Shown here piece after piece: positions 19,848 to 52,341 of a DNA stretch of 64,000 bases (position 1 is its first letter; each line of letters starts with the position of its first letter). The position numbers and the translations under genes are program-made. Source of the DNA: an uncultured Candidatus Saccharibacteria bacterium. GTDB lineage: Bacteria; Patescibacteriota; Saccharimonadia; Saccharimonadales; JAUPVS01. The notes under the pieces were generated by a model. The model ran no database searches, was not told the DNA's origin, and saw nothing but the letters and a program-made list of their open reading frames with translations. The stretch is from assembly GCA_964410185.1 (NCBI GenBank), contig CAYPFM010000003.1:150119-214118 (forward strand), in the 5' to 3' direction.

Positions 19848-19981
19848 TTCTTTGGCTGGGCGAAAGGTTGATATTCCAAACTTTTGAGGAATTAGATTCA
19901 ATCCCCGATAAGGAAACTGAACTCAAGGAAATTCGCGACCTATTAGATGATAACACCACTCCTCATAAGGAGGAGATGTAA

Positions 19982-20530
19982 ATGCGTAGGCGCGGTAAAT
20001 CTAGTTCAAATGGTGGCATGATGGCCACTATACTCTTCGCAATATCTTGCTATGGCCTCCTAAGTAACCCTGTCTTTGTAGCTAAAGTAGAAGAAATCGC
20101 CAGATATGCCGTGGCAGTTGTTGCTTCGATCATTGTAGCCACATTCACGGTACGATTAGCAAGGAAAATTAACAGTCGAGGAATAAAAGCAGTAGATACC
20201 ATGTCAGGAGTAGAATTTGAACATTATGTGGCCAAACTCTTAGCAAAACAGGGCTACAGCCATATTTCATTCACCGAGCGATATGACTACGGTATAGATA
20301 TTGTCGCTGACAAGGATGGTATCAAGTGGGGTATCCAAGTAAAGCGCCATAAAGGTCCAGTAAAAGCCCTTGCTGTACGCCAAGCCGTTACTGCCTTGAA
20401 GAAGTACTGCTGCGACAGAGCCATGGTGGTGTCTAATAGCCAGTTTAGCCGAGTTGCTGTGGAGCTTGCCAGAACCAATGACTGCACTTTAATAGATAGG
20501 AATAAGTTAGTGAGTTGGATAACGGCTTAA
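19982..20530 (+). CDS. membrane-anchored restriction-endonuclease-fold (Mrr_cat-like) protein
   Basis: Two N-terminal TM helices, then GVEFEHYVAKLLAKQGY...DYGIDIVADKDGIKWGIQVKRH (D...QxK core). Confidence 0.7.
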   Translation: MRRRGKSSSNGGMMATILFAISCYGLLSNPVFVAKVEEIARYAVAVVASIIVATFTVRLARKINSRGIKAVDTMSGVEFEHYVAKLLAKQGYSHISFTERYDYGIDIVADKDGIKWGIQVKRHKGPVKALAVRQAVTALKKYCCDRAMVVSNSQFSRVAVELARTNDCTLIDRNKLVSWITA

Positions 20531-20739
20531 AATGGGAAGATGTCTGAGGACTTCACCCCAAGAGCTTTGATTATCTTTTCAAGTATTTCTACTGATGGAT
20601 TAATCTCGCTACGTTCAATCTTTGCATAGTAATTGGAGTTAATGCCTGCTTTTTCGGCTAAGCCAGCCTGACTCAAACCTTTTTGGAGTCGAACTTGCTT
20701 CAATTTCTGAGCAATTTTCTTGCTTGTCTTATCTGTCAT
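20527..20739 (-). CDS. XRE-family HTH transcriptional regulator
   Basis: 70 aa; GLSQAGLAEKAGINSNYYAKIERSE. Confidence 0.8.
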   Translation of the reverse strand: MTDKTSKKIAQKLKQVRLQKGLSQAGLAEKAGINSNYYAKIERSEINPSVEILEKIIKALGVKSSDIFPF

Positions 20740-20780
20740 TTCAGCTCTACAGTACTGTATTACAGAATGGGAGTAAAGGC

Positions 20781-20978
20781 TTATTCACCTTTGAGAACAT
20801 CTAACAGGCGATGCAGCCATTCTTCTGCGCCGATCTCCTGAATTAGTTTGGCGTTAGCCTTTACCCAGTCTTCTTCGGCTATGAGTGGTTCGTGATCTTC
20901 GCTCAGGTTCTTTGCAATTACAATAGCATAGTAGGGGTTGGCGAGCATCTTCTTCAGGTTGTTCTCATCATTGGTCAT
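20781..20978 (-). CDS. small acidic hypothetical protein downstream of the RT
   Basis: 65 aa ORF 44 nt after the RT stop, same strand; no family recognised. Confidence 0.4.
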   Translation of the reverse strand: MTNDENNLKKMLANPYYAIVIAKNLSEDHEPLIAEEDWVKANAKLIQEIGAEEWLHRLLDVLKGE

Positions 20979-21021
20979 CTATGCAAGATTATACCACGCA
21001 CAAAGATGTCCTCTCGATGCA

Positions 21022-22335
21022 TCACAGCTTACTCTTGGCAGTTCTGCGTATTTTATTAAGTTGGCGGCCAACTCTAGCAGAATTCGTTTTCTTGTACGCG
21101 CCCCGCAGGTAGTCTGCTTTTCGGTTCCCACGTAGATGTTTGCTTAGGGTTGATGATCGGAAGCCAATTTTCTCACCATTGAAATGAAAGCCCAAGTATT
21201 GAGTTTCTTCTCGTTTGTTATTGCCAGCCGGTTCTAGCTCTTGCGTGACATTCTTCAGTAGCTTAGAATCCGGCTCCATTCTAAACGCCTCTGTCTTGTG
21301 TAAGCCTAATACAAGTTTATCATTGCTCAGCGCTTGCTTAAGTTGATCATAGATTTCAATCGCCTTTCCGAGCGGGCAGATTATAAATATATCGTCGCTG
21401 TAGCGCTGGTATACACCCCCGTACTTTTCAACTACGACATCTCTCATAGTTTGGTCAAAATCTAGAAGGTACAAGTTAGCAAGCACGCCGCTAATAGGGC
21501 TGCCTTGAGGAATTCCTTTGCCGCTTCGGTTCGTCCTGACTGACTGTTTTAGATAGTGGTTGTAATCACTCTGCCTACACAGCTTCAGGCAACCTTGTTC
21601 TTTGATCAGATATGACCGTCTTTTCGTACGCAGGGTCTGGATTGCTTCACTAAAAATTATGTAGCGATACTTCGTTATTCGGTTATAAATTATTTCATGA
21701 TCCTGGCTGGCTGCAAAGCCTCCGCGGATTAGATCAGACCATCTTTTCTTAAGCAGAATGTGGTCAATTGTATCAAAAAAGCTTTTTACATCCACCATCA
21801 TGCAATCATATTCATCACGAGACTGCATTTCGGTGAATGCTTCTTTGGCAAAGTCTACATTGTTTTTACCAGAAATTGAACGGTAAGCAATGACATTGTT
21901 GCCAAGGTTACTTTCTGCCAATCGATTCTCGTAAAGCAGCTGCAATGTATAGGAATAGTACGAAAAGATACAGGCATCGCGATGTGATGCGTACATGATA
22001 GGCCGGGATTTAATGTGGCTAAATTTCTTCTGATCACGTTCTCCGCGAAGCGACGAGTAGCTGTAGTCGTATGGTGGCTGCCTGAATTTTCGTTGACGTT
22101 GGTCTTTACGAATGAATGGCAAAAAACCGTGTTGAGCAAGTTTAGACTCCTGTTCAACTACCTCCTTTAACCAGGCTGCTTGTTCGGCGGGACGACCAAG
22201 TTTTGGAAAGTGAAGTTTACCGTCTAGATGAGGATAGCCACGTTCTCCAATAAAGTTCTTTTTGAAGGCTCTTTGGCCTTTTGTTTTGCTTTCTTGGGCT
22301 TCTAGCCATTCTTCGTAAAGGGGTTTTTGGTTCAT
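21022..22335 (-). CDS. reverse transcriptase (stand-alone; Abi/UG-like rather than retron or group II by motifs)
   Basis: RT motifs RPIMYASHRDACIF (1), AYRSISGKN (2), VDVKSFFDTIDH (3), GIPQGSPISGVLANLYL (4), YQRYSDDIFII (5, YSDD), YLGFHF (7). Confidence 0.9.
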   Translation of the reverse strand: MNQKPLYEEWLEAQESKTKGQRAFKKNFIGERGYPHLDGKLHFPKLGRPAEQAAWLKEVVEQESKLAQHGFLPFIRKDQRQRKFRQPPYDYSYSSLRGERDQKKFSHIKSRPIMYASHRDACIFSYYSYTLQLLYENRLAESNLGNNVIAYRSISGKNNVDFAKEAFTEMQSRDEYDCMMVDVKSFFDTIDHILLKKRWSDLIRGGFAASQDHEIIYNRITKYRYIIFSEAIQTLRTKRRSYLIKEQGCLKLCRQSDYNHYLKQSVRTNRSGKGIPQGSPISGVLANLYLLDFDQTMRDVVVEKYGGVYQRYSDDIFIICPLGKAIEIYDQLKQALSNDKLVLGLHKTEAFRMEPDSKLLKNVTQELEPAGNNKREETQYLGFHFNGEKIGFRSSTLSKHLRGNRKADYLRGAYKKTNSARVGRQLNKIRRTAKSKL

Positions 22336-22736
22336 AGTAAATCCTGAAACTTGGCTCCCCGGTGCGGCGTAGCACTGTTACCCTAGGGTGAGGAGCCAAG
22401 GCAGTCGGCAGAGCGTTTGCGAAACGAGTACAGACTAGAACGGGGATAATGAGAGGTACTTTTCTCGAGTAGTTACGCCAAAGTCAATTCATTTGCGAAG
22501 AACTACAATGGTATCATGGCTATTGCTATCACAACACTATTTGTAACTCAGCAAGCGAGTAAGGGTATGCTACTATTGAAATTCAAGAGTAGTTTGGCCT
22601 TACGGCTAACCGCCTCCGTCAGCATTATCTGCCAGCTCGGGCTTGACCTCTGTCCTGTCTCACCTGCCGATGGTGCAGATCCCGTTCTCGTCCACACTAT
22701 TGTTGGCCACGGCAGTGGGTTGTTACCCTAAACAGT
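22336..22736 (-). ncRNA. structured ~400-nt leader/ncRNA of the RT gene
   Basis: No sense ORF of 60 aa or more; starts about 7 nt after an extended -10; multiple hairpins including a 9-bp stem at 22350-22400. Confidence 0.5.
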
Positions 22737-22742
22737 GGCTAT

Positions 22743-22751
22743 ATTATACCA
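22743..22751 (-). promoter_or_regulatory. extended -10 promoter (TGGTATAAT) for the RT leader
   Basis: Minus strand AAATTTGGTATAATAT. Confidence 0.5.
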
Positions 22752-22825
22752 AATTTGTATATATTACGCTACTGCTTTGCGACAAAATAGCACTAATGTC
22801 AAAGCGTTTATGCTATAAAAAGTAT

Positions 22826-22854
22826 TTGCATTATTAGCAAATGTCGTGTTATAA
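22826..22854 (+). promoter_or_regulatory. promoter of the T4SS operon
   Basis: TTGCAT-N17-TTATAA, then AAGGAG RBS and ATG 22876. Confidence 0.45.
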
Positions 22855-22875
22855 AGGTGGCCATAAGGAGTTGGT

Positions 22876-23217
22876 ATGAAAAATCGCAACAAACTTACAC
22901 TGCTAGTCACTTACGTGTCTATCGGGTTGCCATTCATCCTCACCCAACCAGTCTTTGCCGCTACGGGGGATGTAGGGAGTGTTGAAAGCTTTCTTCGAAG
23001 TATTATTCAGGTAGTCGCAGGACTAGCCGGTCTCATAGCGACCGGCTTTTTTGTAATCGGTGGCTTTAGTTATATCACCAGCTCAGGTAACCCAGAGCAT
23101 CTGGATAAGGCCAAGCGTACGCTGATGTATTCAGCGATAGGATTGGCTATCACGATCGGAGCGTTCGTCCTCAGTAATATTGTGGGCGATCTCGCCCACC
23201 GGGCGTTCGGAGGATAA
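22876..23217 (+). CDS. VirB2/TrbC-like T4SS pilin
   Basis: Signal peptide ending VFAATG; two TM helices flanking GGFSYITSSGNPEHLDKAKR. Confidence 0.6.
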   Translation: MKNRNKLTLLVTYVSIGLPFILTQPVFAATGDVGSVESFLRSIIQVVAGLAGLIATGFFVIGGFSYITSSGNPEHLDKAKRTLMYSAIGLAITIGAFVLSNIVGDLAHRAFGG

Positions 23218-23221
23218 CCGA

Positions 23222-24466
23222 ATGCTTGGACGATCAGCCATCATCCTTAACAGAATGGCTGACGCGTCCGCGGCCAGCCAGTCTATTAAGAGTTATCTGG
23301 CACCAGTTCTTTTAACTCTGGGTGGACTAGCTGTTATTGTTTGTACCTTCTTCCTCGTGGTTGGCGGTATCGGCTACATGACCAGTGCTGGTAAGCCAGA
23401 TAAGTTAGAGCATGCCAAGAAAGTGATTCGCAATGCCCTCATAGGGTTAGTGATCGTGATTGCCGCCGGTACTCTGACGTCAATACTGGTTCACGCCTAT
23501 GCTGGCTCCACCGGTACGGCGGTACAGCAGTTGCCGGATCTTGGTTCAGTCAATCCGGCTAGTAACTCACCAGGTCTTATTGACGTGCTCATCAAAGCAA
23601 TCACAGGTTTGTTCCAGTACATTGTGGAATCAGCAGCCAAACCGTTTATTGCTGGCCTAGATTTCTTTACGAAAGGTACACCACTAATGGCCGCCAACGC
23701 AGCCGTCTTTAACTTGTGGCTTGCCACTGTGGCCATTGCTGACGCCCTGTTTGTACTAGTCGTGGCACTACTCGGTTTCCATATTATGAGCTTTGCTGCA
23801 TTAGGGTTAGACGAAATTGAGTTTAAGCATCTATTGCCACAATTAGCAGCTGCTTTCTTACTAATTAACACCTCGATCTTCTGGATAGATATGGTGATTG
23901 GATTATCTAATGCCCTGATTGATGCTATCAACGCGGCGTTTCCGGGTGATTCTGTCTGGAAGGCTCTGTCTGGTGTAGTCGAGCATTCCACTGGTCTTGG
24001 GCTCGTGGCACTACTGGTCATGGTGGCTTTCATGATTCTGGCGGTAATTCTGATGATCTACTATATTACCCGTATCGTAACCCTCTATCTTGGTGCGGTG
24101 CTCGCCCCATTAGTGGTGCTGCTGTGGTTACTTCCAGGCTTTAAAGATTTTGCTGTGACCGCTATTAAAACCTACGTCGTTACTATTTTTGTATTGTTCG
24201 TGCACGTAATTATTCTATTGTTGGCAGCGTCATTACTTGCCAGTGTAGTGGCGACAGGGGGTAGTACACTAAACTCCTTTATGGCCATGTTGGTCGGTTG
24301 CGCAACGCTGATTGCGCTCTTAAAAACCCAGGGTCTCATGAATCAACTCGCCTACGTCAGTATGGGGCCAAAAGCACTCCGAAAACTTGGCTCTCAGTTT
24401 ATGACGGGCGTAAGTTACATGACCACTAAGGGTAAAGCAGTTGCCAAGGCAGGAGCTGCAGAATGA
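23222..24466 (+). CDS. VirB6/TrbL-like polytopic T4SS protein with an N-terminal pilin-like module
   Basis: Start moved to MLGRSA (GGAGGA RBS). The N-terminal GGIGYMTSAGKPDKLEHAKK is paralogous to the preceding pilin; at least 6 further TM helices. Confidence 0.6.
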   Translation: MLGRSAIILNRMADASAASQSIKSYLAPVLLTLGGLAVIVCTFFLVVGGIGYMTSAGKPDKLEHAKKVIRNALIGLVIVIAAGTLTSILVHAYAGSTGTAVQQLPDLGSVNPASNSPGLIDVLIKAITGLFQYIVESAAKPFIAGLDFFTKGTPLMAANAAVFNLWLATVAIADALFVLVVALLGFHIMSFAALGLDEIEFKHLLPQLAAAFLLINTSIFWIDMVIGLSNALIDAINAAFPGDSVWKALSGVVEHSTGLGLVALLVMVAFMILAVILMIYYITRIVTLYLGAVLAPLVVLLWLLPGFKDFAVTAIKTYVVTIFVLFVHVIILLLAASLLASVVATGGSTLNSFMAMLVGCATLIALLKTQGLMNQLAYVSMGPKALRKLGSQFMTGVSYMTTKGKAVAKAGAAE

Positions 24467-24981
24467 AATCAACGACCGTACCCGCTCAAGTTACCACCGT
24501 TGAGGATAAAATTGCTGGTAACTTAAACCTCGCGCAGTTGTTGCTACTGGCTGCATCTGTGTTCGGTGGTTTTGCCTTGTATATCGTCGTACCGCCAATG
24601 ATGCACTTCTCGCTCATAAAGGTGATGCTGTGTCTGGTAATCATGCTGGTCTTTGCCTCATTAGCAATTCGGGTGCGGGGTCGAATCTTAGCGCTTTGGG
24701 TTGGCACGATTCTCCGTTATAACTTGCGACCACGCTACTACCTGTACGACAAGAACGATACCTACTTACGGGTGAGTGAGCAAGAAGCACCCAAGGAAGT
24801 AGCCGAAACCAATACAATCGAGGTTACAGATACGGATAAGCATTCAGCCTTAGATATTCCGATGAACAAACGTATCCAACTTGAAACAGTCATGGCTGAT
24901 CCAACTGCTCAGCTCGCCTTTGAAACCAATAAGAAAGGAGGTCTCCATGTTCGTATTACAGAAGTCAAACAAGAAAGTTAG
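24463..24981 (+). CDS. PrgI/VirB3-like small T4SS membrane protein
   Basis: VPAQVTTVEDKIAGNLNLAQLLLL N-terminus and two TM helices; ATGA overlap with the upstream gene. Confidence 0.45.
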   Translation: MKSTTVPAQVTTVEDKIAGNLNLAQLLLLAASVFGGFALYIVVPPMMHFSLIKVMLCLVIMLVFASLAIRVRGRILALWVGTILRYNLRPRYYLYDKNDTYLRVSEQEAPKEVAETNTIEVTDTDKHSALDIPMNKRIQLETVMADPTAQLAFETNKKGGLHVRITEVKQES

Positions 24982-25555
24982 CACCAGAAGACAAATTAAT
25001 ATTAAAGGTGTCCGTGACAATGTCCTATTGCTACCTAACCACCAGTACCGTTTAGTGTTAGATATTTCCTCGGTGAACTTTGAGCTCAAGAGTGAAGCTG
25101 AACAAGACGCATTGATTGATACCTATCAAAGTTTCTTAAATTCTCTCGGCTGTGATGTACAGATCATGGTACGTATTCGTGAGCTGGATATGGATAAATA
25201 CATTGCTGAGTTCACGTCCCGCATGAGAAATGAGGAAGAAACCATTTACAAAGAGCAACTCAAAAACTACACCTCTTTCGTCCGCGGCTTAATCCAGACA
25301 AACAAGATCTTAGCACGTCAGTTCTATATTGTGATTCCCACTTCTGGGAAGGATGAGTTTGACTTGATAAAAGAGCAGCTTCACCTGAATGCCGACATTA
25401 TCGCTAAAGGTTTGGCTCGCATGGGTATGCATAGTCGCCAACTAACCAGCCTCGAGCTTCTTGACCTGTTCTACAGCTTCTATAACCCCGGACAAGCTAA
25501 GCGCCAACCAATTACGAATCAAACCCTTGAGCTACTTAACAGGAGTTACCTATGA
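24947..25555 (+). CDS. VirB4-family ATPase, N-terminal domain encoded as a separate ORF
   Basis: Start moved to MFVLQKS (AAAGGAGG RBS). INIKGVRDNVLLLPNHQYRLVLDISSVNFELKSEAEQDALI is typical of Gram-positive VirB4/TraE N-termini. Confidence 0.6.
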   Translation: MFVLQKSNKKVSTRRQINIKGVRDNVLLLPNHQYRLVLDISSVNFELKSEAEQDALIDTYQSFLNSLGCDVQIMVRIRELDMDKYIAEFTSRMRNEEETIYKEQLKNYTSFVRGLIQTNKILARQFYIVIPTSGKDEFDLIKEQLHLNADIIAKGLARMGMHSRQLTSLELLDLFYSFYNPGQAKRQPITNQTLELLNRSYL

Positions 25556-27312
25556 AAATGCCAGATGTGACCAAGTTTGTAGACAAGAATAGTGCGATTG
25601 CGCAGTGGCAAAAGAAACGATCAGAGAAGCCCAAAGAACTTCGACTATTACTCGGTGAGCAAGATGCCATGGATGTACTTTCCTACGCAGGGCTGGAAGA
25701 GCAAGCTGATCACTTTGTAATTGATGGCCGGTATATGCGTGTTCTGTTTGTTTCGGGCTACCCATTCGTTGCTAGCTCCGGTTGGTTGAATAGCCTCGTG
25801 AACTTCAATCACAATGCGGATATTTCCTACCACATTGCCAGCGTTGATGCTACGCAAGCACTACCAAAATTACATCGCAAGATCACTGAACTGGAATCCA
25901 CTAAGCGTGCCTACATGCGTGTCGGTAAAATTATCGGGCCCGAAATCACTGATCCACTGGAATCAGCCACGCATTTACGAGATAAGATTCAGCGTGGTCA
26001 GGAAAAACTGTTTCAGGTCTCAATTTACGTGACATTGTCTGCCGATTCGATAACGGAACTCGATAAGACAACTAAATTACTGGAAACGGTTTTGTCAGCT
26101 CGCTTGTTCTATATTAAAACCGCACGCTACCAACAACTTGAGGCGTTGCAGTCTATTCTGCCCCGGGCTCAAGACATCCTGAATCAGAAACGTAACTTGG
26201 ATAGCTCATCTGCGGCGCTAACGTTTCCGTTTATGAGCTCCGAACTTGTGCAAGAATCGGGCATTTTGTATGGGGTAAACAAATCCAATAACTCATTGGT
26301 CATCTTAGATCGTTTCAGCCTCAATAACGCGAATAGCATCGTCTTTGCGCAGTCTGGGAGTGGAAAAAGCTACGCTACCAAAGTAGAAATCCTGAGACAG
26401 CTGATGCAAGGCACTAAGGTTATCGTGATTGACCCCGAACGAGAGTACAAAAGGTTAAGTGAATCAGTTAACGGAACGTATATTAAGTTATCGGCCAAAT
26501 CAAAGGAAAAGATTAATCCGTTTGACCTCTCTGCCACCTTCCACACTCGCAAAGATCTGTCTGAACATACTCAAGATTTAATTGAAGTGGTCTCGCTGAT
26601 GGCTGAAGGCTTAAGTCCTCGTGAAAAGGCGGCTGTCGATAAAGCCATTCTTAGGATCTATAGGACTGCGAAGAAGAAAACTCCATTACTGGAAGACCTG
26701 TACAAAGAACTCCATGTACTTGGACAAATTAAGCTCTGTGATCGCTTGGAGAAGTATATTAGCGGCTCATTGGCGGATGTCTTTAACGCACAGACAAATA
26801 TTAAGTTAGAAAACCGACTAGTAATCTTCGATATCAAGGACTTGCCGGAGTCTTTGCGGCAAATTATGATGATGATCATTTCCAACTTTGTAGCCAATCA
26901 GGTCAAAGCCAAGCCCGAAAAGCGCCTGTTGGTTATTGATGAAGGCTGGCTACTACTGGAGCACGAGGAATCGGCACGGTTTGTATCGGGCTTAGTCCGG
27001 CGTGCGCGCAAGTACTACCTCGGAGTCTCGATTATCTCCCAGCAAGCTAACGACTTTCTTAAGAACGACTACGGTCGCGCCATTGCCTCACAAAGTTCTT
27101 TACGTATTCTCATGCGCCAGGACACCACAACTATTAAGAATGTGGTCTCAGAGTTTCACTTGAGTGAATACGAGGAAAACTTTCTGCTGACGTGTGATAA
27201 GGGTGAAGCCTTAATTATTGCCGACCAGCACCATGTGGCCGTTAAAGTGGTCGCTTCAGGTAAAGAGCATCCTCTGATTACCACTAACCCCGCGGAGCTG
27301 TACCACCTATGA
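25552..27312 (+). CDS. virB4: VirB4-family T4SS ATPase (central and ATPase domains)
   Basis: Walker A FAQSGSGKSYATK, Walker B LLVIDEGW; ATGA overlap with the N-terminal-domain ORF. Confidence 0.85.
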   Translation: MKMPDVTKFVDKNSAIAQWQKKRSEKPKELRLLLGEQDAMDVLSYAGLEEQADHFVIDGRYMRVLFVSGYPFVASSGWLNSLVNFNHNADISYHIASVDATQALPKLHRKITELESTKRAYMRVGKIIGPEITDPLESATHLRDKIQRGQEKLFQVSIYVTLSADSITELDKTTKLLETVLSARLFYIKTARYQQLEALQSILPRAQDILNQKRNLDSSSAALTFPFMSSELVQESGILYGVNKSNNSLVILDRFSLNNANSIVFAQSGSGKSYATKVEILRQLMQGTKVIVIDPEREYKRLSESVNGTYIKLSAKSKEKINPFDLSATFHTRKDLSEHTQDLIEVVSLMAEGLSPREKAAVDKAILRIYRTAKKKTPLLEDLYKELHVLGQIKLCDRLEKYISGSLADVFNAQTNIKLENRLVIFDIKDLPESLRQIMMMIISNFVANQVKAKPEKRLLVIDEGWLLLEHEESARFVSGLVRRARKYYLGVSIISQQANDFLKNDYGRAIASQSSLRILMRQDTTTIKNVVSEFHLSEYEENFLLTCDKGEALIIADQHHVAVKVVASGKEHPLITTNPAELYHL

Positions 27313-27794
27313 ACTTAGTCGGCTACGTCTTTAAGAAATCGAAGTACGAACTGATGATTGTTTTAGCAGTCATCATTGTGTTGTTTTCAATGCCGGTCAT
27401 AGTACTGGCGGCTGTTTCTGATCTTGGGGCAATCGACACACATCCGCTCTATACCGAACCAGCTGACGGTCGTGATTTATATGACTACGGTAACTGTACC
27501 TATTGGGCAGCCTTGCGACGTATCCAGATTGGGCACCAAATACCCAACACCTGGGGCAATGCTAATACCTGGGCGGAGCGGGCAGCCCTTGACGGCTACC
27601 AGGTCGACCATAACCCCGCCGTAAACTCGATCATGCAAACCAGTGCCGGTTTCTACGGGCACGTTGCGTTCGTCGAAGCAGTAGATGAGCAGGGCAACTG
27701 GACAATCTCTGAGATGAACGTTATTGGCTATGATCAACTTGATACCAAGACGCTATCGCCAGCCATGGCCAAGTGGTTCTACTTTATTCACTAA
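27309..27794 (+). CDS. CHAP-domain peptidoglycan hydrolase (VirB1 analogue)
   Basis: TM anchor, catalytic Cys in GNCTYWAA and His in GHVAFVEAV. Confidence 0.75.
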   Translation: MNLVGYVFKKSKYELMIVLAVIIVLFSMPVIVLAAVSDLGAIDTHPLYTEPADGRDLYDYGNCTYWAALRRIQIGHQIPNTWGNANTWAERAALDGYQVDHNPAVNSIMQTSAGFYGHVAFVEAVDEQGNWTISEMNVIGYDQLDTKTLSPAMAKWFYFIH

Positions 27795-27804
27795 AGGAGG
27801 AGCT

Positions 27805-30757: not shown

Positions 30758-30805
30758 TTGAATCTGCCTAGAAATGGCTAGAGATATCCGTTAACACTGT
30801 GAAAA

Positions 30806-30814
30806 TGGTATAAT
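30806..30814 (+). promoter_or_regulatory. extended -10 promoter, leaderless geometry
   Basis: TGGTATAAT-ATAGCT-ATG(30821). Confidence 0.45.
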
Positions 30815-30820
30815 ATAGCT

Positions 30821-31330: not shown

Positions 31331-31356
31331 GTTTTATATTTGCAAGCTTGAGCAAC

Positions 31357-42774: not shown

Positions 42775-42798
42775 GAATAATAAATACCCATCTTAAGA

Positions 42799-45218: not shown

Positions 45219-45952
45219 TAGGCTGTCTTTGCTTCAATTTGCAGGTATATGTCTTCGAGAGACGCTTGATCTGGGAATGACTTGAGTGTATGAGCCAAGG
45301 AATCTTGGTATATCAGTTCACCATTTCTGAGAACGCCTATACTGGTGCAAGTTTTAGTCACTTCAGACAGTAAGTGTGTATTCATGAATATTGTCATTCC
45401 TAGTTCATGATTAAGCTTTACGATGATATCGCGCAGATTCTTAACACCCTGTGGATCTAGTCCGGAGGTTGGTTCATCCAGAAATAACACTTTTGGTTCA
45501 TGGAGAATGGCTTGAGCAATGCCAACGCGTTGTCGCATGCCCTTACTAAACGTGGCTAAGCGCTCACCTTCATGGCCAGTAAAGTCCAAAAACTTGAGTA
45601 CTTTATGAATACGCTTATCTGGCCTCGCAATTCCAGACAAACGGGCAAAAAACTGTAAATTTTCAAGCAGCGTAAGGTTATCGTAGAACTGAACGTTTTC
45701 GGGCAGATAGCCAATGGCTTGGCGCACTTCATTAGCATTCTCCGTAATGTCATAACCTGCTACTCGGGCGCTGCCACTGGTAGGTTCCAGTAAGGTCGTG
45801 AGAATCGTGACGATTGTTGTCTTACCGGCACCGTTGTGCCCAAGCAAACCAAATATCTCACCGCTCCTAACAATCATGTCCAACTGCTTCACGGCTCGTT
45901 TTGCGCCATAGGCTTTTGTAATACTTTTGGTTTGGATGGCTATATCTGTCAT
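45218..45952 (-). CDS. ABC transporter ATP-binding protein
   Basis: Walker A GHNGAGKTT, signature FSKGMRQR, Walker B LFLDEPTSGLD. Confidence 0.9.
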   Translation of the reverse strand: MTDIAIQTKSITKAYGAKRAVKQLDMIVRSGEIFGLLGHNGAGKTTIVTILTTLLEPTSGSARVAGYDITENANEVRQAIGYLPENVQFYDNLTLLENLQFFARLSGIARPDKRIHKVLKFLDFTGHEGERLATFSKGMRQRVGIAQAILHEPKVLFLDEPTSGLDPQGVKNLRDIIVKLNHELGMTIFMNTHLLSEVTKTCTSIGVLRNGELIYQDSLAHTLKSFPDQASLEDIYLQIEAKTA

Positions 45953-45998
45953 TACTTAAGAGTGTAGCGATTGTTTATGGGAATATCATGGGAGGCGT

Positions 45999-46634
45999 TT
46001 ACGACTTTCGCTCACGGTATGTGCCATATAGGTGCAGGGCAAGTACGATCGTAATGATACCGCCAATGATTACTACCGTAAGGACCGTTGAATGCCGTAA
46101 CAACTGTTGTAAGTTTGCGCCATAGTGTTTACCAATCAATAAGTAGAACCATATCCACGCCAACATAGAGACTAACGTACTCAAGACAAACGTCCGATAA
46201 CGGACACCAGAAACTGCTGCGAACACGGTTATCGGTATGCGCATACCGGGGATGTGGCGACCAATAATTATTGTCCATATGCCGTACTTGTTAAATAACC
46301 GTTCGGCTCTTTGTATGTGCCGTTCTTTCAAGAATATAAACTTTCCGAGTCTGGCAATGAATTGTTGGCCGTAACGCCGGGAAATAAAAAACAGAATACT
46401 TGAACCGGCAACGACTGCGAGTACGGCCGCAGCAAATGCTATCCATATTGAGGAGTGTTGGCTGACCTGAACACTGTAGCCAGTGTAGGCCAGTATACCG
46501 TCTCCCGGGACTAGGATAGGTACCCCAGCCTCCTCAACAAACAGCAATAACAGTGGCGCCAGAACGCTTTGGTGTTGAATGAAGTTTTCTATCAGTTCCG
46601 TATAGCTATCGAGCAACCGTACAAGTGCCTCCAA
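45999..46634 (-). CDS. DedA-family membrane protein
   Basis: LLLLFVEEAGVPILVPGD and the downstream TM pattern. Confidence 0.75.
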   Translation of the reverse strand: MEALVRLLDSYTELIENFIQHQSVLAPLLLLFVEEAGVPILVPGDGILAYTGYSVQVSQHSSIWIAFAAAVLAVVAGSSILFFISRRYGQQFIARLGKFIFLKERHIQRAERLFNKYGIWTIIIGRHIPGMRIPITVFAAVSGVRYRTFVLSTLVSMLAWIWFYLLIGKHYGANLQQLLRHSTVLTVVIIGGIITIVLALHLYGTYRERKS

Positions 46635-46637
46635 CTA

Positions 46638-47648
46638 TTATCCTTTCGGAAGAGTTACGGTAACAGTCGTACCCTTATGGGGTTCAGACTTTAGGCCAAT
46701 TGCCCCGTGATGCTGGTCTGTAATAGCCTTGCTGATGGCGAGGCCTAGGCCGAAACCTTTTGTTGTTCGAGATGTTTCTGCTCGATAAAAACGTCCGAAT
46801 ACTTTGCCGGTCTGGGCTTTCGTCATACCCATGCCGCTATCTTCGACAGATATCATAATATTCTTGCCAGCCAGTTTAGCTGACACACTGACATGACCAT
46901 GTTCCGGCGTAAACTTAATAGCATTATCGACGAGATTCGTGAAGAGCTGATCAATAGTTGCTGGGAAGCCCTTAGTAGTAAGCCGCTGATTTGGTGGGTC
47001 GAACGTAAGCAAGATGTGCTTAGCTTCTGCTGGTCTAGAAAAACGACTGACAACTTCTGTTAGTACATCAACAATATCAACAGAGTGGTTCATAGAAATT
47101 GAACGCTCTTGATCGCCACGGGCTACCAACAGTAATCCTTCAGTAAGTTGATGTAGCCTATCGAGCTCTTCACGCGTGCTTTTAATGGTTGACTGATACT
47201 CTCTCGGGGTTCGTGACTGCTTGAGGGCAACATCGAGCTCGCCCTGCATGATGGTGAGTGGTGTCCTGAGTTCGTGAGAGGCATCGGAAACAAACTGTTT
47301 CTGTTTATCATATGTCTCTTCGATCGGCCGGAGAGTTCGTCCGGTGAGGATCCATGCCAGACCTGGTACCACGAGGAGCATAGTGCCGTTTAGTATGATG
47401 AGTACTCTTTTCAACTGTCCGAGAGCGACATCCCCGGCCACTGTTACGGTTTCAACCGTTTTATCATCAAACGCAACATCGCCAGTTTGCTCAACTTGCT
47501 GATTCTTGACCTTGCTTATGTAGCCCTCGCCAAACGACCGATCCATCCATACGTATAGCCCAGCGCTAAACAGCCAAAACACACTAAAGAATATCAGACA
47601 GTACACAAATGTGAGCTTTAACCGCGCGGACTTAAACATGCTTCTCAA
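46638..47648 (-). CDS. sensor histidine kinase
   Basis: H-box SHELRTPLT, N-box LVDNAIKFT, G-boxes DSGMGM and GFGLGLAI. Confidence 0.85.
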   Translation of the reverse strand: MRSMFKSARLKLTFVYCLIFFSVFWLFSAGLYVWMDRSFGEGYISKVKNQQVEQTGDVAFDDKTVETVTVAGDVALGQLKRVLIILNGTMLLVVPGLAWILTGRTLRPIEETYDKQKQFVSDASHELRTPLTIMQGELDVALKQSRTPREYQSTIKSTREELDRLHQLTEGLLLVARGDQERSISMNHSVDIVDVLTEVVSRFSRPAEAKHILLTFDPPNQRLTTKGFPATIDQLFTNLVDNAIKFTPEHGHVSVSAKLAGKNIMISVEDSGMGMTKAQTGKVFGRFYRAETSRTTKGFGLGLAISKAITDQHHGAIGLKSEPHKGTTVTVTLPKG

Positions 47649-48315
47649 CCTTCATAACATAACCAAAGCCCCGAACTGTATGTATAAGCGGCACGCTACC
47701 GGCTGATATTTGCAGTTTCTTACGAAGGTACTTGATGTACGTCTCAACAATATTCGATAAACCGTCATAGTTATAGTCCCACACATGTTCCAGAATCTGG
47801 GGTTTGGAGAGTGACATGCCTTGGTTACGTAGTAAGTACTCGAGCAACGCGTACTCACGTGCCGTACAAGTAATATCAGTGTCGCCGCGTTTTACTTCTC
47901 TCGTAGCAGGATTAAGCGTCAGGTTGTCGATAGCAAGGATACTCGGATCGGCATTACCGCCGCGCCTGAGTAAAGCACGAATGCGGGCTGTTAGCTCACC
48001 AAATGCAAAGGGCTTAGTGAGGTAGTCATCGGCTCCACTATCGAGACCAGCAATCTTATCCTCAAGCTCACCCTTAGCAGTTAACATGATAATTGGTACG
48101 TTTGTGTCTTGTGCACGAATAGCCCGGCAAACTTCCAGACCATCTTGCTTAGGAAGCAGACGATCGAGGATAATTAGATCGTACGAATTAATCTCAAACT
48201 TATAGACGGCTGCCTCGCCGTCTGTGGCAATGTCTACCGCGTAGTGTTCTTCAAGAAGGCCACGTCGCAACACATTGGCAATTTTAGGCTCATCTTCAAC
48301 AACCAAAATCTGCAT
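47632..48315 (-). CDS. OmpR-family response regulator
   Basis: Receiver domain (DLIILDRLLP, MLTAK) plus a winged-helix C-terminus. Confidence 0.9.
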   Translation of the reverse strand: MQILVVEDEPKIANVLRRGLLEEHYAVDIATDGEAAVYKFEINSYDLIILDRLLPKQDGLEVCRAIRAQDTNVPIIMLTAKGELEDKIAGLDSGADDYLTKPFAFGELTARIRALLRRGGNADPSILAIDNLTLNPATREVKRGDTDITCTAREYALLEYLLRNQGMSLSKPQILEHVWDYNYDGLSNIVETYIKYLRKKLQISAGSVPLIHTVRGFGYVMKVEKHV

Positions 48316-48355
48316 GCTCTAATCATACCGCGCAATTATGAGAAAAGGATGGGAA

Positions 48356-48841
48356 TCAGCTTGGCTCGGGGTCGTGCTTGGCCAATCGCTCTAAAACCAC
48401 GTACACGATCAGTGTCGATACTACGGCAATGACGATTGCTCCAATAATGTCGATAAGGTGATGTACGCCAACATACACCCGCGAAAGTCCAACCAATAGT
48501 GTCAGGCCGAAGAGAACCGAACCGACCACACGATTATAACGCCAGACAATTGCTGAAACTACGGCACTCAAAAGGGTATGATCAGACGGAAAGCCATTAT
48601 CAAAACCATGAGCTACTAAGGGCGTGAAATGACCAACCACAAAGGGTCGAGGGTTCATATAAAGTTTGGCAGCTATGAGCGACAGCAAAAATGTTAAAAG
48701 GACGCTCGGAACAGCAAAGATGAAAACTTCTTTGCGCTTTGCCCTGGGTACTTGCAGCAGAAACCAGATTGCAGCAAGAGTCAGAAGAAAGAAGATGACA
48801 TATTTGGCACCAAATATCGCAAGCTTTTGTGTTAGGGTCAT
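48356..48841 (-). CDS. PAP2-family phosphatase (BcrC/undecaprenyl-diphosphatase-like)
   Basis: PSDHT and SRVYVGVHHLIDI motifs. Confidence 0.7.
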   Translation of the reverse strand: MTLTQKLAIFGAKYVIFFLLTLAAIWFLLQVPRAKRKEVFIFAVPSVLLTFLLSLIAAKLYMNPRPFVVGHFTPLVAHGFDNGFPSDHTLLSAVVSAIVWRYNRVVGSVLFGLTLLVGLSRVYVGVHHLIDIIGAIVIAVVSTLIVYVVLERLAKHDPEPS

Positions 48842-48941
48842 GAAACGTTAGTATACATGGGGATTATGAGAAACTCATGAGAAGTCTTTGGGTGTGTATA
48901 GTTTGTTGGGCTATCTAATTGGCTATGCCAACTAGAGCTGG

Positions 48942-49442
48942 CTACAGCTCAATAGTCACGATCTCACCGAACCCAGGTAGTTTCTGGCCAGTAAGTTCGT
49001 AGTATGGAGTGCCTGCTTCATGGCATGCACCAATAATGGTCAGAGCATGGGAGACGCAAGCGCGGTTAGCCGGTGGATTGTCAAGTAGCGCTGCTCCTGC
49101 TCGTCGAGACTCAATCGGTACTTTGCCGCGAACAACCTCGCGCATAATGGCGGTCTTGCCTCGTTGCACACTGACTTCATTCAGCAAAGCATTGACGACC
49201 ATATCCTCTGCTTGCCATCCAGCACCCAGTGCGGTCTGATGGGAACGAAGTAACTTAGAAACCTCGACTCTCTCCGAGATAGGGTTAATACCAACCTCAC
49301 GGTAGCGTTGACCCAGCAACACAGCCTGATTCCAGCCTTTTTCAGTTAGTGGCGATTCCCACTCGTCAATTGCAGCGTCATTATGCCCCTTGTTGACTTC
49401 GGCTTGACCATGGCGTGCAAGGTATAGTTTCACAAAGGTCAT
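48942..49442 (-). CDS. histidine phosphatase family protein
   Basis: LYLARHGQ catalytic RHG motif at the N-terminus. Confidence 0.6.
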   Translation of the reverse strand: MTFVKLYLARHGQAEVNKGHNDAAIDEWESPLTEKGWNQAVLLGQRYREVGINPISERVEVSKLLRSHQTALGAGWQAEDMVVNALLNEVSVQRGKTAIMREVVRGKVPIESRRAGAALLDNPPANRACVSHALTIIGACHEAGTPYYELTGQKLPGFGEIVTIEL

Positions 49443-49549: not shown

Positions 49550-49644
49550 TCAATTACATAATAGCAAATAAACATTAGCTGCAAACTTACTTTTCCTCAA
49601 GAAAAGCAAGGAGCCTCTAAAGCTTGCGCTTTAGCGCCTACAAA

Positions 49645-50430
49645 CTAACTCAGGGCTATAAGTTTTTCAGGCTCTAGTACATCTGTCCATATAGCAGGAT
49701 TAGCTCCTTGTGATGCCTTAATACTCGTCGTAACTATCGTTACTTCATCCTCCATACCCGAACTGTCTAGTACTTGCTTGGCATAGCCTTGAAAGTTCTG
49801 TTCAGCCCTACCGTCAGCTAATACAAAGCAAACAGTCGGGTACTTCTCTTCCTGCCAGTCCTCATCGTAGTTTTGTAAAAGACTCTCTAATCGTTTCCGG
49901 GCAAGAAACGGGGCTACATCATGGGATAGTTCAATAAAGTACTGGATTGAGCTTTGAGCCGCTTCTGTAGGCTTAAGCCATAGGTCGGAACGTGGGCTTG
50001 GGAAGGAGTCGAAGCGAGCCTGTTCGTTACGAGTGTGGACGTAGAACTGGTCAGGATAGTTTTGCTTAAGATGCAGGAAGGCCTGCTCTGTGTCTATATG
50101 GTGGTCAATGAAGTGTTCGGTGACTGATTTGTTCTTGTACATGGCATGCAGAACGGCTTCATTCAAGCTGAAGTTATCTTTGAGGTACTTAATACCTTTG
50201 GCCGTCAGGTAGTAACGGGCAGCTTTGCCGAGTAGTTTGTAGTTCTTACTATAATGCCGATCTACTAATTCTCGTTTTACTAGTATTGCCATTGTTTGAT
50301 TGCATGCTGAACGACTAATACCTTTATATTGAGCGAGAAAGGAAGCAGTAATGAACCGGAATTTATAGAGCAATCTGAGCACATAGATTTGTTGCGCATT
50401 GAGAACGTATTCTTTACGTTGATTAACCAT
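49645..50430 (-). CDS. replication-relaxation family protein
   Basis: The N-terminal LNAQQIYVLRLLYKFRFITASFLAQY winged-helix pattern resembles plasmid replication-relaxation proteins. Confidence 0.45.
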   Translation of the reverse strand: MVNQRKEYVLNAQQIYVLRLLYKFRFITASFLAQYKGISRSACNQTMAILVKRELVDRHYSKNYKLLGKAARYYLTAKGIKYLKDNFSLNEAVLHAMYKNKSVTEHFIDHHIDTEQAFLHLKQNYPDQFYVHTRNEQARFDSFPSPRSDLWLKPTEAAQSSIQYFIELSHDVAPFLARKRLESLLQNYDEDWQEEKYPTVCFVLADGRAEQNFQGYAKQVLDSSGMEDEVTIVTTSIKASQGANPAIWTDVLEPEKLIALS

Positions 50431-50647
50431 AGACTATTCTTGAACCACCGCTACTCTTATCTTTTTGTCTCTCTATAGTATATAGAAATAGAAGGAGAGT
50501 AAATAGAGTTCTTTTAAACTGTTAATTAAGTTAATACGACTTGCAACCGATGACAAGCATTATTGTGGATAACTCTATGTAGAAAAGACTTGTAACTAAC
50601 CAGATAAGGATAGTACAATATAACCATATAAGGTTAGGAAAACAACT

Positions 50648-50818
50648 ATGGCCGAGGGTAAAAATCAGACAGCTACTTCCAAAGCAATTGAGTCGCTTCA
50701 ATGTATCCTCAAGCAACAACTCTCGCGGGATGTGGCTTACGATGAAGCCCAGGAAGTGGGTGAATCTCTAATCAACTTCTACGAATTACTTGCCTTAGAG
50801 GATGAGTGCGATGAGTAA
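50648..50818 (+). CDS. small acidic ORF overlapping the recombinase start
   Basis: 56 aa (below the track cutoff): MAEGKNQTATSKAIESLQ...LALEDECDE. AGGAAA RBS; TACAAT -10 upstream. Confidence 0.3.
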   Translation: MAEGKNQTATSKAIESLQCILKQQLSRDVAYDEAQEVGESLINFYELLALEDECDE

Positions 50819-52298
50819 ACAAAACGCTGTCATCATGGCGCGTGTCTCCAGCAAGCGCCAAGGAGATGAAGGTTATTCGCTTCCCGCTCAGAAACGGTTA
50901 CTTAAGAGCTATGCCGTTGGGCAGGGCTTATTTCCGCTACAAACTTATGAGATTGCCGAGTCAGCCTCAAAAGCTGTACAGCGCAAAATCTTTAAGGAGG
51001 CCATGAAGTTCATTGAGCAAAACAACATTAAACACCTTATTGTCGAAAAAGTTGATCGCCACGTTAGGAATCTACAAGATGCAGTTGATACGCATGACTG
51101 GCTGCTGGCCGATGAAGAAAAACGAGTTCACTTTGTAAAAGACTCGCTTATTATGCATAAGAATTCACGCTCCCAAGAGTGGTTGAATTGGGGCATCCGT
51201 GTCGTTATGGCCAAGAACTACATTGATAATCTTCGTGAAGAAGCTATGAAAGGCTGGGCTGAAAAACTTGCCCAAGGCTGGCTACCCGCGCCACCGCCCC
51301 TTGGCTACATGAATGCTGTGCAAAATGGTAAAAAGATCCACGTACCCGATCCTGAGACAAAAAAACTTGTAGTAGATGTTTTCAAGAAATACATAGAGCC
51401 GGATGAAAATTTAGACACCACGACTGCATATATGGCTAAACTCGGTTTGCGTACTCGTACCGGGCACCCATATGTTAGAGGTAGAGTGCAGAAACTGCTC
51501 ACGAACACCTATTACATCGGCATCAACCATTTCGATGGCAAAGATTACCCCGGATCTCAAGAGTTGTTCTTACCGAAACAGTTATTTGAGCAAGTACAGT
51601 TAAAGCTTCACAGGCGAAGGCCGCATCGTTATAGCAAACACAATTCGCCACTCAAAGGTCTTATCCGTTGTGAGGACTGTGGGTCAATTGTGACGTGGCA
51701 ACAGCAGAAGGGTAAATACTACGGAGTCTGTCGGCGACTAACGGAGGCTTGTAAACAAAACAAAATGCTTCGAGAAGATAAGATCGAAGAGATCATTATA
51801 GCTGAGCTTAAGAGATTGGTCTGTCCGTCACCCGAGATCATTGACTGGGTTGTTGATGAAATGCAGAATCGGCAGCACGAACGGGTTGAGGAGTATGAGC
51901 AACAGCTCGAGACACTCCAAGCCCAGTTGAAGCGGCTAAGAAGGATGGAGGAAACCCTATACGACGACAAACTATCAGGAGAGATAACTAAAGAAAGGTA
52001 TGAGGTAAAGCATGCAGAAATTCTAAAGAATCAGGAAGATGCTGAGGATCAGATCAACAAGCTAGATAGCACGCTTGGCGAGCGCCTAGAGCTTCGCTTG
52101 GCAATTCTTGAACTGTCTCAAAAAGCAGCCAGCATCTACACGAACAAGTCACCAGAACAGAAACGCCTGCTCATTTCCAAACTATTCGCCAAGCTAAGTT
52201 TGCAGGGAGGTTCTCTATCTGTTAAATACTCAAAATTCGTAGAATTGATCGCAGAAAAAGTTCAAAAAACAACTAATTTAGCGGAGGGACAAATATGA
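50802..52298 (+). CDS. large serine recombinase
   Basis: Resolvase domain with AVIMARVSSKRQ (catalytic Ser), recombinase domain, zinc ribbon CEDCGS...YYGVC, C-terminal coiled coil. Confidence 0.85.
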   Translation: MSAMSKQNAVIMARVSSKRQGDEGYSLPAQKRLLKSYAVGQGLFPLQTYEIAESASKAVQRKIFKEAMKFIEQNNIKHLIVEKVDRHVRNLQDAVDTHDWLLADEEKRVHFVKDSLIMHKNSRSQEWLNWGIRVVMAKNYIDNLREEAMKGWAEKLAQGWLPAPPPLGYMNAVQNGKKIHVPDPETKKLVVDVFKKYIEPDENLDTTTAYMAKLGLRTRTGHPYVRGRVQKLLTNTYYIGINHFDGKDYPGSQELFLPKQLFEQVQLKLHRRRPHRYSKHNSPLKGLIRCEDCGSIVTWQQQKGKYYGVCRRLTEACKQNKMLREDKIEEIIIAELKRLVCPSPEIIDWVVDEMQNRQHERVEEYEQQLETLQAQLKRLRRMEETLYDDKLSGEITKERYEVKHAEILKNQEDAEDQINKLDSTLGERLELRLAILELSQKAASIYTNKSPEQKRLLISKLFAKLSLQGGSLSVKYSKFVELIAEKVQKTTNLAEGQI

Positions 52299-52341
52299 CA
52301 TTCCAAACTTTTAAAAAAGACGATGATAACAGAGACGAAAA

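Follow-up and report, generated by a model that had tools for sequence, protein, structure and literature searches.

A probable integrated element with a conjugative gene set at the 3' end of tRNA-Gln in a Saccharibacteria genome

A type IV secretion system (T4SS) lies between a tRNA-Gln gene and a short copy of the 3' end of that gene in a 64,000-nt stretch of Saccharibacteria contig CAYPFM010000003.1 (the window, to which all coordinates refer). The segment concerned, 19853-52386 (32.5 kb, hereafter the block), is probably an integrated element whose gene set is that of an integrative conjugative element (ICE), which would have arisen by recombination between the attP site of a large serine recombinase and an attB site at the 3' end of tRNA-Gln(CTG). 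The borders and the ICE-like architecture are supported. The anatomy of the block, its recurrence in other genomes, a strain-level polymorphism at the tRNA end and the incongruence between the recombinase module and its flanks can all be read from the sequences. The T4SS is currently regarded in these bacteria as a fixed chromosomal feature without DNA transfer, yet the block looks like a conjugative element at tRNA-Gln.

Features were annotated using Pfam, NCBIfam, PADLOC, Rfam, ARAGORN, an AlphaFold model, Foldseek and a terminator scan. Relatives are cited by locus number, each locus being the genomic context of a relative in another genome or contig (L081, L082, L084, L096, L109, L164, L193 to L196 and L200).

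The two ends of the block

The right end is formed by an intact tRNA-Gln(CTG) gene on the minus strand (52379-52452; ARAGORN, Rfam tRNA 61 bits), the presumed integration target, and a first, sequence-only reading of the window was right in placing a recombinase next to it at the extreme end. The recombinase gene (50802-52298, plus strand, 498 amino acids) matches Pfam Resolvase, Recombinase (PF07508) and Zn_ribbon_recom (PF13408). Its catalytic domain (Resolvase, 7.3e-16, residues 9-159) contains the serine motif ARVSSKRQ, and a four-cysteine ribbon (CxxC...C...C, about residues 290-318) and a charged C-terminal region of 160 amino acids are also present. These domains identify the protein as a large serine recombinase, which is intact. 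More than 1,000 relatives of 55-96% identity and a uniform length of about 496 amino acids were obtained from Saccharimonadales; in viral contigs the search for relatives returned only phage integrases of at most 36% identity.

The stop codon of the recombinase overlaps the start codon of a small open reading frame (ORF) as ATGA, with GGAGG 7 nt upstream. This ORF (52295-52387, plus strand, 31 codons, MTFQTF...CLLWLG) runs into the tRNA gene on the opposite strand, its last codons TGG CTG GGG being the reverse complement of the tRNA-Gln 3' end, CCCCAGCCA. The putative attR core, TGGCTGGG at 52379-52386 on the plus strand, is the tRNA-Gln 3' end itself and lies 80 nt from the recombinase stop. 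In the intervening spacer the terminator scan found a hairpin on the minus strand (52342-52357), which is borne by the element and would terminate tRNA-Gln in the integrated state.

At the left end the same TGGCTGGG occurs on the plus strand at 19853-19860, identical to 52379-52386 and hence a copy of the last 8 nt of tRNA-Gln; this is the putative attL core. It is situated 8 nt upstream of the left copy of a 13-nt direct repeat, which is considered separately below, and about 3 nt after a hairpin terminator assigned to the chromosomal B-arm (19822-19851, minus strand). The hairpin has a folding energy of -25.2 kcal/mol (z = -8.3) and none of 200 shuffled sequences was as stable. Read on the minus strand, the left end consists of CCCAGCCA followed directly by the very stable stem-loop and a U-tract, which is how a tRNA gene with its own terminator would look if 32.5 kb were removed. 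In the other direction a reading frame is open from TGGCTGGG onward (WLG-ERLIFQTFEELDSIPDKETELKEIRDLLDDNTTPHKEEM and a stop codon), and the stop overlaps the start of an Mrr-like nuclease gene as TAAATG. This frame (19853-19981, plus strand, peptide WLGERLIFQTFEELDSIPDKETELKEIRDLLDDNTTPHKEEM), which is in frame with the core, appears to be the C-terminal half of the small ORF whose N-terminal half is found at the right end. attL and attR have a core of 8 bp in common, which is the tRNA-Gln 3' end, and attP lies inside a small ORF coupled to the recombinase.

The components of the left site, namely the terminator, TGGCTGGG and a match of 16 out of 17 nt to the spacer between recombinase and tRNA, all fall within 65 nt, and the 8-mer together with a match of at least 13 nt to that spacer was obtained in only 1 of 2,000 shuffles. 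One JGI metagenome assembly also contains both junctions of the window, each in a short contig of its own and 100% identical, which makes a join introduced by scaffolding or by the binning of a metagenome-assembled genome unlikely. These two results uphold the view, taken in the sequence-only reading, that it is the positions of the repeats which make them suggestive.

Junctions in related genomes

Nine related recombinase junctions were compared. The overlap of the recombinase stop with the start of the small ORF (ATGA, GGAGG 7 nt upstream) is a recurring arrangement, the ORF having 31 codons in eight of the nine cases and 34 in L096. It terminates as ...[CR]-[STL]-x-W-[LQ]-G exactly at the end of the tRNA gene on the opposite strand. 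The adjoining tRNA is Gln(CTG) in the window, L081, L082, L164 and L194, Gln(TTG) in L193 and Trp in L096. In this last locus, where the recombinase is 51% identical, the ORF terminates as ...SVWQG and the junction, TGGCAGGGG, is the tRNA-Trp 3' end. The junction sequence therefore varies with the target tRNA, as fits the need of attP and attB for a common core.

The ORF following the recombinase in L084 continues uninterrupted past WLG, as ITCLVKTFNRDVGEKINVNEIYDLLEKGD..., and so has the form of a P-O-P' junction. Beyond WLG it contains a motif, [ER]-I-[RKY]-[DE]-L-L-[DE], which is present in the half-ORF at the left end of the window and is common to L109 (IERIKELLESEE and a stop codon) and L084 (NEIYDLLEKGD). 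The homology of L084 follows the right end of the window up to TGGCTGGG and then switches to the left end of the window, which places the breakpoint at the 8-mer and not at the 13-mer. A second junction of P-arm and tRNA-Gln is found 1.9 kb further on in L084, indicating a probable tandem accretion at one att site.

The left end of L109 is composed of a terminator, TGGCTGGGG and an in-frame peptide, WLGIRYGERELFNKTPNEASIERIKELLESEE, whose stop codon overlaps a nuclease-like gene. Downstream follow an XRE gene, a reverse transcriptase gene on the minus strand (37% identical to that of the window), VirB2 and the rest of the T4SS, which is the same layout as in the window. The C-terminal half of the small ORF is at the far end, upstream of the T4SS, in both the window and L109.

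L194 and L195/L196 encode an identical recombinase protein, and L194 and L195 show no mismatch over 11,580 nt. They diverge directly after ...AAATGGCTG, the breakpoint being within TGGCTG, where L194 runs on into tRNA-Gln. L195 has instead an insert of 4,854 bp (11581-16434 of that locus) which is flanked by TGGCTG, is absent from L194 and resembles an integrative and mobilizable element. The insert encodes DUF4276 and AAA_21 proteins (defence-like), a rolling-circle Rep (REP_ORF2-G2P) and a serine recombinase of 483 amino acids, 26% identical to that of the window, whose own ORF terminates as ...WLGR and a stop codon inside the tRNA-Gln 3' end. L195 and L194 form a natural pair, occupied and empty respectively, for an element with a serine recombinase at exactly this tRNA end. 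Together with the tandem junction in L084, the pair shows that such elements come and go there.

Conjugation genes and a candidate relaxase

The T4SS genes are all on the plus strand. A VirB2-like pilin and a pilin/VirB6-like membrane protein (22876-24466; Pfam T4SS_pilin, TrbC, TrbL) are followed by a PrgI/VirB3-like protein, a TraC-like N-terminal protein and the VirB4 ATPase (24463-27312; Pfam, NCBIfam conju_CD1110 3e-112), which have the same order in the 80 loci used for the comparison of VirB4 and T4SS gene order. Then come a CHAP cell-wall hydrolase with a predicted VirB1-type role (27309-27794; Pfam CHAP 6e-18) and a type IV coupling protein of 895 amino acids, VirD4/TraD-like (27724-30411; Pfam T4SS-DNA_transf, TrwB_AAD_bind and TraG-D_C; NCBIfam TraD/VirD4-like). 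Together they form a complete T4SS of the Gram-positive type with its coupling protein. A VirB4 identity of 87% was considered as a sign of recent transfer and this was rejected, VirB4 being 78-94% identical across all 80 loci.

The order of T4SS, coupling protein, variable cargo, RepRelax gene, small ORF, recombinase and tRNA is also found in L082, L164, L096 and L193. The cargo interval in these loci is 1.5-4 kb with different genes, as against 19 kb in the window.

The RepRelax gene (49645-50430, minus strand) encodes a Replic_Relax protein of 261 amino acids which is a candidate relaxase. It matches Pfam PF13814 with 38.7 bits (cutoff 25.3) over residues 18-124 only. The sequence-only reading had recognised no canonical MOB relaxase, and this stands in so far as only the N-terminal, winged-helix half of the protein finds a match; PF13814 is, however, the Pfam signature of the MOB_C relaxase superfamily (PMC5357655). 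MOB_C relaxases have an N-terminal winged helix and a PD-(D/E)xK-type nuclease domain and are found on ICEs (e.g. TraX of pAD1; PMC12857230). In the confident AlphaFold model of the window protein (pLDDT 90) a winged helix leads into an alpha-beta-beta-beta-alpha-beta domain, in which E136, (P)D149, K179/R180 and an acidic residue at position 167 are conserved. Compared with TraX and with MobC of CloDF13 (PMC12857230), it is alike in the winged helix, in the alpha/beta domain with its conserved acidic residues and P-D motif, in exceeding the PF13814 cutoff and in being encoded together with a coupling protein and a T4SS. It differs in matching profiles in the winged-helix half only and in having no confidently assigned (D/E)xK triad. 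We regard it as a predicted, MOB_C-like relaxase candidate.

A conserved acidic ORF of 56 amino acids (orf56, 50648-50818, plus strand), present in six loci with 38-61% identity, overlaps the recombinase start. Neither orf56 nor the split small ORF matched the family libraries searched; both are candidates for a recombination directionality factor, and orf56 may alternatively be a regulator.

Among the features by which ICEs are recognised, an integrase with flanking att sites, a mating-pair-formation T4SS with VirB4 and a coupling protein are all present in the block. The accessory genes which the sequence-only reading had seen as enclosed, T4SS and coupling protein among them, have been borne out by Pfam and NCBIfam matches as a gene set of the ICE type.

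Is the block still mobile?

Three genomes, those of the window, L082 and L194, have a common TrmD-KhpA-S16 flank and were used for a test of congruence. The host-side markers pair L082 with L194. Identities for L082-L194, window-L082 and window-L194 are respectively 70, 59 and 61% for TrmD, 62, 46 and 51% for KhpA, 71, 52 and 46% for S16 (these three being core genes) and 93, 76 and 72% for the tRNA body. The genes near the recombinase pair L082 with the window, the identities in the same order being 67, 76 and 67% for the recombinase, 46, 63 and 50% for orf56 and 24, 36 and 22% for RepRelax. L194 and L084 carry one element type (recombinase 82%, RepRelax 61% identical) in different chromosomal flanks, and the coupling protein of the window follows the same split, with 62% identity to L082 and 33% to L084. 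This pattern indicates an apparent horizontal replacement of at least the recombinase-proximal module.

The most serious alternative to an element that is still mobile is a domesticated remnant, for which we see a real but minority chance. The block would have entered in the same way and have the same borders but would now be fixed, its T4SS serving the epibiotic lifestyle and not DNA transfer, and only the end module of recombinase and RepRelax and small inserts would move. The recombinase would have been retained for another job, such as the capture or exchange of small elements and cargo at the tRNA end. A number of observations favour this alternative or otherwise weigh against our reading of the block as an ICE. 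Nearly all Saccharibacteria have the T4SS cluster and conserve it strongly, as the range of VirB4 identities given above illustrates, and the block may thus be fixed. In Southlakia the T4SS is essential for epibiotic growth (PMC10633639), and it is reported there without coupling protein or relaxase (PMC10633639; PMC12102498); the Saccharibacteria T4SS is regarded as chromosomal and co-opted (PMC12102498). The block has the same position by TrmD-KhpA-S16 in three lineages. The demonstrated polymorphism concerns the 4.85-kb element of L195 and not the T4SS block, and the congruence test covers the recombinase module, showing incongruence for recombinase, orf56 and RepRelax only. The search for the attL signature with its C-terminal half-peptide in all loci having sequence upstream of VirB2 returned only the window and L109.

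The missing intermediates belong here also. The sequence-only reading had asked for an empty site in related genomes, with the tRNA-Gln flank joined to the flank at 19.8 kb, and this was not found. Look-ups with the exact recombinase and Mrr-gene proteins gave integrated junctions only, with neither an empty attB nor a circular attP junction among them, and the only other assembly of the window organism has both integrated junctions with 100% identity. The Replic_Relax protein scores 16 bits against NCBIfam MobC (cutoff 200) and its Pfam match is confined to the winged helix. A Foldseek search with the model matched only MarR folds, the N-terminal part dominating, and was uninformative for the C-terminal domain. 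A search of the 217 bp that separate RepRelax from orf56 gave no convincing origin of transfer (oriT); the two inverted repeats seen there are weak (72-76% complementarity). The best dyad symmetry in the reconstructed attP was 12-13 out of 26, no better than in shuffled sequences. A short pair AAAGTTTG/CAAACTTT centred near the core was noted by inspection only. In the reconstructed attB the only dyad signal was the terminator hairpin.

The composition is only partly helpful. The step which the sequence-only reading would expect at the borders is seen on the right, where the GC content at third codon positions (GC3) changes sharply from 0.44 in the block to 0.59 in the flank. The left border is compositionally invisible, because the adjoining 8.1-19.85 kb, with a GC3 of 0.45, is equally low in GC; it has the same tetranucleotide profile as the element even though it is outside attL, and GC3 is 0.55 in the first 1-8.1 kb.

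Against a remnant, both halves of the split ORF are open and the motif of the C-terminal half has been kept in two genomes. This would be puzzling if the joined ORF were no longer made; most simply, excision continues. The recombinase is intact and strongly constrained. The coupling protein and the MOB_C-like gene have been retained, and the coupling protein tracks the element type, as the identities to L082 and L084 given above indicate. On balance an integrated element with the gene set of an ICE remains our preferred reading of the block.

The 13-nt repeat

The sequence-only reading had delimited an element of about 32.4 kb by a 13-bp direct repeat, taken as the att core. The repeat was found as described: ATTCCAAACTTTT has two exact copies in the window, 19873-19885 and 52300-52312, both on the plus strand. 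The right copy begins 1 base past the TGA of the recombinase and ends 66 nt before the tRNA-Gln 3' end, and the left copy is between the hairpin and the Mrr-like gene, which starts at 19982. The match widens to 16 of 17 nt (TGAYATTCCAAACTTTT; 19869-19885 and 52296-52312). The left copy of the 17-mer, TGATATTCCAAACTTTT, is on the plus strand and belongs to the P' arm, on the element side of the core and 8 nt away from it, and the right copy is included in the N-terminal half of the small ORF. The accompanying caveat that tens of such repeats arise by chance was also correct. The window contains 83 repeated 13-mers forming about 45 independent pairs, so an exact 13-mer repeat alone carries no weight. 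The chance of an exact common 13-mer between two regions of 100 nt is about 1.5e-4, and it is unlikely that the 16/17-nt repeat is at these positions by chance.

That the crossover took place in the 13-mer or 16/17-mer, the element being 19873-52312 and the TGGCTGGG by the left copy being incidental or a relic, is improbable. This repeat is the longest exact one common to both ends, and direct repeats of ICEs with serine integrases may be up to 21 bp (PMC4701971). A role at the DNA level is suggested by the conservation of ATGACATTCCAAAC, which contains most of the right 13-mer and is identical in five junctions even at synonymous positions; L193 has a single synonymous change (ACG for ACA, ATGACGTTCCAAAC), and ATGACATTCCAAAC is absent from L164 and L096, which have other ORF starts. 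However, the breakpoints of homology with L084, L109 and the L194/L195 pair all fall in TGGCTGGG. The homology of L084 to the right end of the window continues for 66 nt beyond the 13-mer before that to the left end begins, attL of L109, which begins at TGGCTGGGG, lacks the 13-mer, L194 and L195 part within TGGCTG, and the junction of L096 varies with the tRNA. Excision at the 13-mer would leave a scar of 92 nt between terminator and tRNA. Given that the right copy is in the conserved start of the small ORF, it would be a conserved functional feature rather than the point of exchange, and the left copy is in the arm beside attL; the 13-mer appears not to be the crossover site. The element as first delimited thus survives, its left border correct to within 20 nt and its right border to about 75 nt, and the 13-mer is lost as its att core.

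The 16/17-nt repeat is not repeated in L084 or L109. One idea is that it may be a duplicated translation-initiation region, TTG ATA TTC CAA ACT TTT at attL mirroring ATG ACA TTC CAA ACT TTT at attR; a putative accessory binding site or gene conversion may also be considered.

A chance repeat in ordinary flexible chromosome beside a recombinase gene, with no element at all, would be consistent with the 45 or so exact repeat pairs of at least 13 nt and with the left border having no compositional step, but is hardly credible given the rarity of the composite site in shuffles (1/2,000), the homology of both junctions to those of other genomes and the occupied/empty pair at the same tRNA end.

Proposed mechanism

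The attP site would lie inside the small ORF that is translationally coupled to the recombinase, so that integration splits this ORF. The first 31 codons would stay beside the recombinase and run into the tRNA (attR), and the last 40 or so codons would end up at attL, at a distance of 32.5 kb, where they are coupled to the Mrr-like gene. The predicted attB is ...AAAAAAGACCATACTGTGCATGGTCTTTTTTCTT-TGGCTGGG-GATGAGGGATTCGAACC... and the predicted attP is ...ACAAAGTTTGTCTCTTA-TGGCTGGG-CGAAAGGTTGATATTCCAAACTTTTGAGG... (hyphens mark the limits of the core). Integration would give the tRNA the element-borne terminator at 52342-52357, and excision would put tRNA-Gln directly before the chromosomal terminator at 19822-19851. 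The excised circle would carry a restored ORF of 71 codons, and the operon of orf56, recombinase and small ORF would read across attP into the Mrr-like gene; such read-through is suggested by the coupled overlaps, ATGA at attR and TAAATG at attL. The MOB_C-like protein would next nick the circle, which would leave the cell via the coupling protein and the element's own T4SS. Present-day excision, nicking by the Replic_Relax protein and conjugative transfer are inferred, as is the exact crossover dinucleotide.

Relation to known systems

Among described systems the closest are ICEs of firmicutes that use one serine integrase. Their direct repeats measure 2-21 bp, and in the rumA-type elements integration exchanges the 3' end of the ORF that contains the att site (PMC4701971). 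The block resembles the Tn1549/Tn5252-type ICEs in rumA (Ambroset et al. 2016, PMC4701971) in having a large serine recombinase (Resolvase, Recombinase and Zn-ribbon) at its extreme end, a Gram-positive T4SS (MPF-FATA-like) with VirB4, coupling protein and cell-wall hydrolase, short direct repeats, and an att site inside an ORF whose 3' end is altered by integration. It differs in its target, a tRNA 3' end, which is typical of tyrosine integrases according to the same paper, rather than a protein-coding gene. It also differs in that integration splits not the integrase gene but another, small gene coupled to it, that the relaxase candidate is MOB_C-like and not MOB_P or MOB_T, and in the VirB2-like pilins and the host, which belongs to the Saccharibacteria within the candidate phyla radiation (CPR).

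Islands and ICEs with tyrosine integrases, such as those of actinomycetes (PMC2440964, PMC3218068), are alike in their integration at a tRNA 3' end with reconstitution of the tRNA, in the short repeat of the tRNA end at the far border, in the integrase beside the tRNA and in tandem accretion at the same tRNA (here L084 and L195). The enzyme of the window is a serine and not a tyrosine recombinase, the repeat measures no more than 8 bp, and arm-type sites are absent.

The T4SS cluster described for Patescibacteria and Saccharibacteria (Quinonero-Coronel et al. 2025, PMC12102498; Wang et al. 2023, PMC10633639) has the same components in the same order: VirB2-like pilins, VirB6, PrgI/VirB3, a TraC-like protein, VirB4 and a hydrolase. 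These papers treat it as chromosomal, mostly relaxase-less and co-opted, whereas attL and attR of a serine recombinase enclose the cluster of the window, together with the coupling protein and the MOB_C-like gene. Current papers argue that the T4SS of Saccharibacteria and CPR no longer transfers DNA, as no relaxase or mobile-element context had been recognised. In the searched portions of the text of the two papers named above neither 'recombinase' nor 'integrase' occurs, and full-text searches of the literature returned no paper linking an ICE, att sites or a serine recombinase to the Saccharibacteria T4SS.

Among Saccharibacteria and other CPR bacteria, the single species that has been tested cannot grow epibiotically without the T4SS. 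The locus in the window gives the T4SS a defined context of serine recombinase, attL and attR at a tRNA 3' end, coupling protein and MOB_C-like gene, and related junctions are present in several lineages; the question of DNA transfer becomes directly testable. The locus also suggests an evolutionary origin for the 'chromosomal' T4SS. It adds a family of serine recombinases targeting tRNA 3' ends, which is of practical interest since genetic tools for CPR bacteria are scarce. A wider proposal can be made only tentatively. In soil Saccharimonadales at least, the T4SS could be the mating apparatus of a still-active ICE family with MOB_C-type relaxases, integrated at tRNA 3' ends by a serine recombinase. 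The state of the element would be read out via the small ORF split across attP, excision restoring the ORF and putting the left-end genes under the recombinase operon, and the relaxase-less T4SS of host-associated lineages would be a domesticated descendant.

Defence genes, cargo and flanking sequences

The left end of the block encodes defence-like proteins. The Mrr-type nuclease (19982-20530, plus strand; Pfam Mrr_cat 1.4e-26) has N-terminal hydrophobic segments and matches the PADLOC ZorD nuclease domain and PDC-S02. An XRE-type helix-turn-helix regulator (20527-20739, minus strand) was identified as an ORF, an identical gene in L200 matching Pfam HTH_31/HTH_3. A defence-associated reverse transcriptase of the DRT2 type follows (21022-22335, minus strand; PADLOC Drt2 7.7e-104, Pfam RVT_1). 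The 540-nt non-coding stretch upstream of it (22336-22875) could hold a template non-coding RNA; Rfam gave no match there or elsewhere in the left flank and reverse transcriptase region of the window. The homologous module of L109 has a LOOT RNA (RF03000, 79 bits, L109:1680-1790) between XRE and reverse transcriptase.

The cargo begins with about 17 orphan ORFs in about 9 kb (30404-39700), which have no Pfam or PADLOC match. Two near-identical direct repeats of 92 nt, with 8 mismatches, are found here (34676-34768 and 35248-35340). Copy A makes up the 3' end of the ORF 34050-34784, copy B lies between genes, and five of the eight differences are A in copy B and G in copy A. They resemble the variable and template repeats of diversity-generating retroelements (DGRs), but there is no DGR-type reverse transcriptase nearby. 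A further 10 kb or so of cargo (39821-49442, minus strand) matches Pfam families for envelope and stress functions: MprF-C-like, esterase, ABC-2 transporter, DedA/VTT, histidine kinase, response regulator, PAP2 and His_Phos_1.

The low-GC segment outside attL (8100-19852) encodes HIT and FBP_C proteins, PEP-utilizer and PPDK_N on separate ORFs that flank an NTP-transferase and a kinase, amidinotransferase/ADI-like and sulfotransferase-like proteins and a CDF transporter. The segment may represent flexible genome or an island of greater age, and no att remnant was seen at its left edge. The relatives of the CDF gene (64-68% identity) have neighbourhoods which are not syntenic, and no empty site could be read from them. 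A GC-rich repeat of about 75 nt (18195-18270 and 19690-19765) is found upstream of each of two minus-strand genes (17640-18083 and the CDF gene, 18705-19550). It has no Rfam match and is not upstream of CDF homologues in other genomes. The GC-rich stretch 19551-19821 was considered as a conserved CDF leader and this was rejected, since the repeat is one within this genome; it could be a lineage-specific leader or small RNA.

On the other side of tRNA-Gln is a Kup potassium transporter gene (52512-54440, minus strand) whose best relatives in reference genomes are 50% identical and belong to Polyangiales, Gammaproteobacteria and Bdellovibrio, with none in Saccharibacteria. As an anchor for the right flank in reference genomes Kup gave only these matches in unrelated phyla and no information on synteny. 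L082 has a beta-lactamase gene at this position instead, and the far side of tRNA-Gln may also be a variable spot with acquired genes. Further along, the leucyl-tRNA synthetase ORF (61355-63874, minus strand) has a NUDIX domain (residues 217-335) right after its editing domain, which starts unusually close to the N-terminus, at residue 56.

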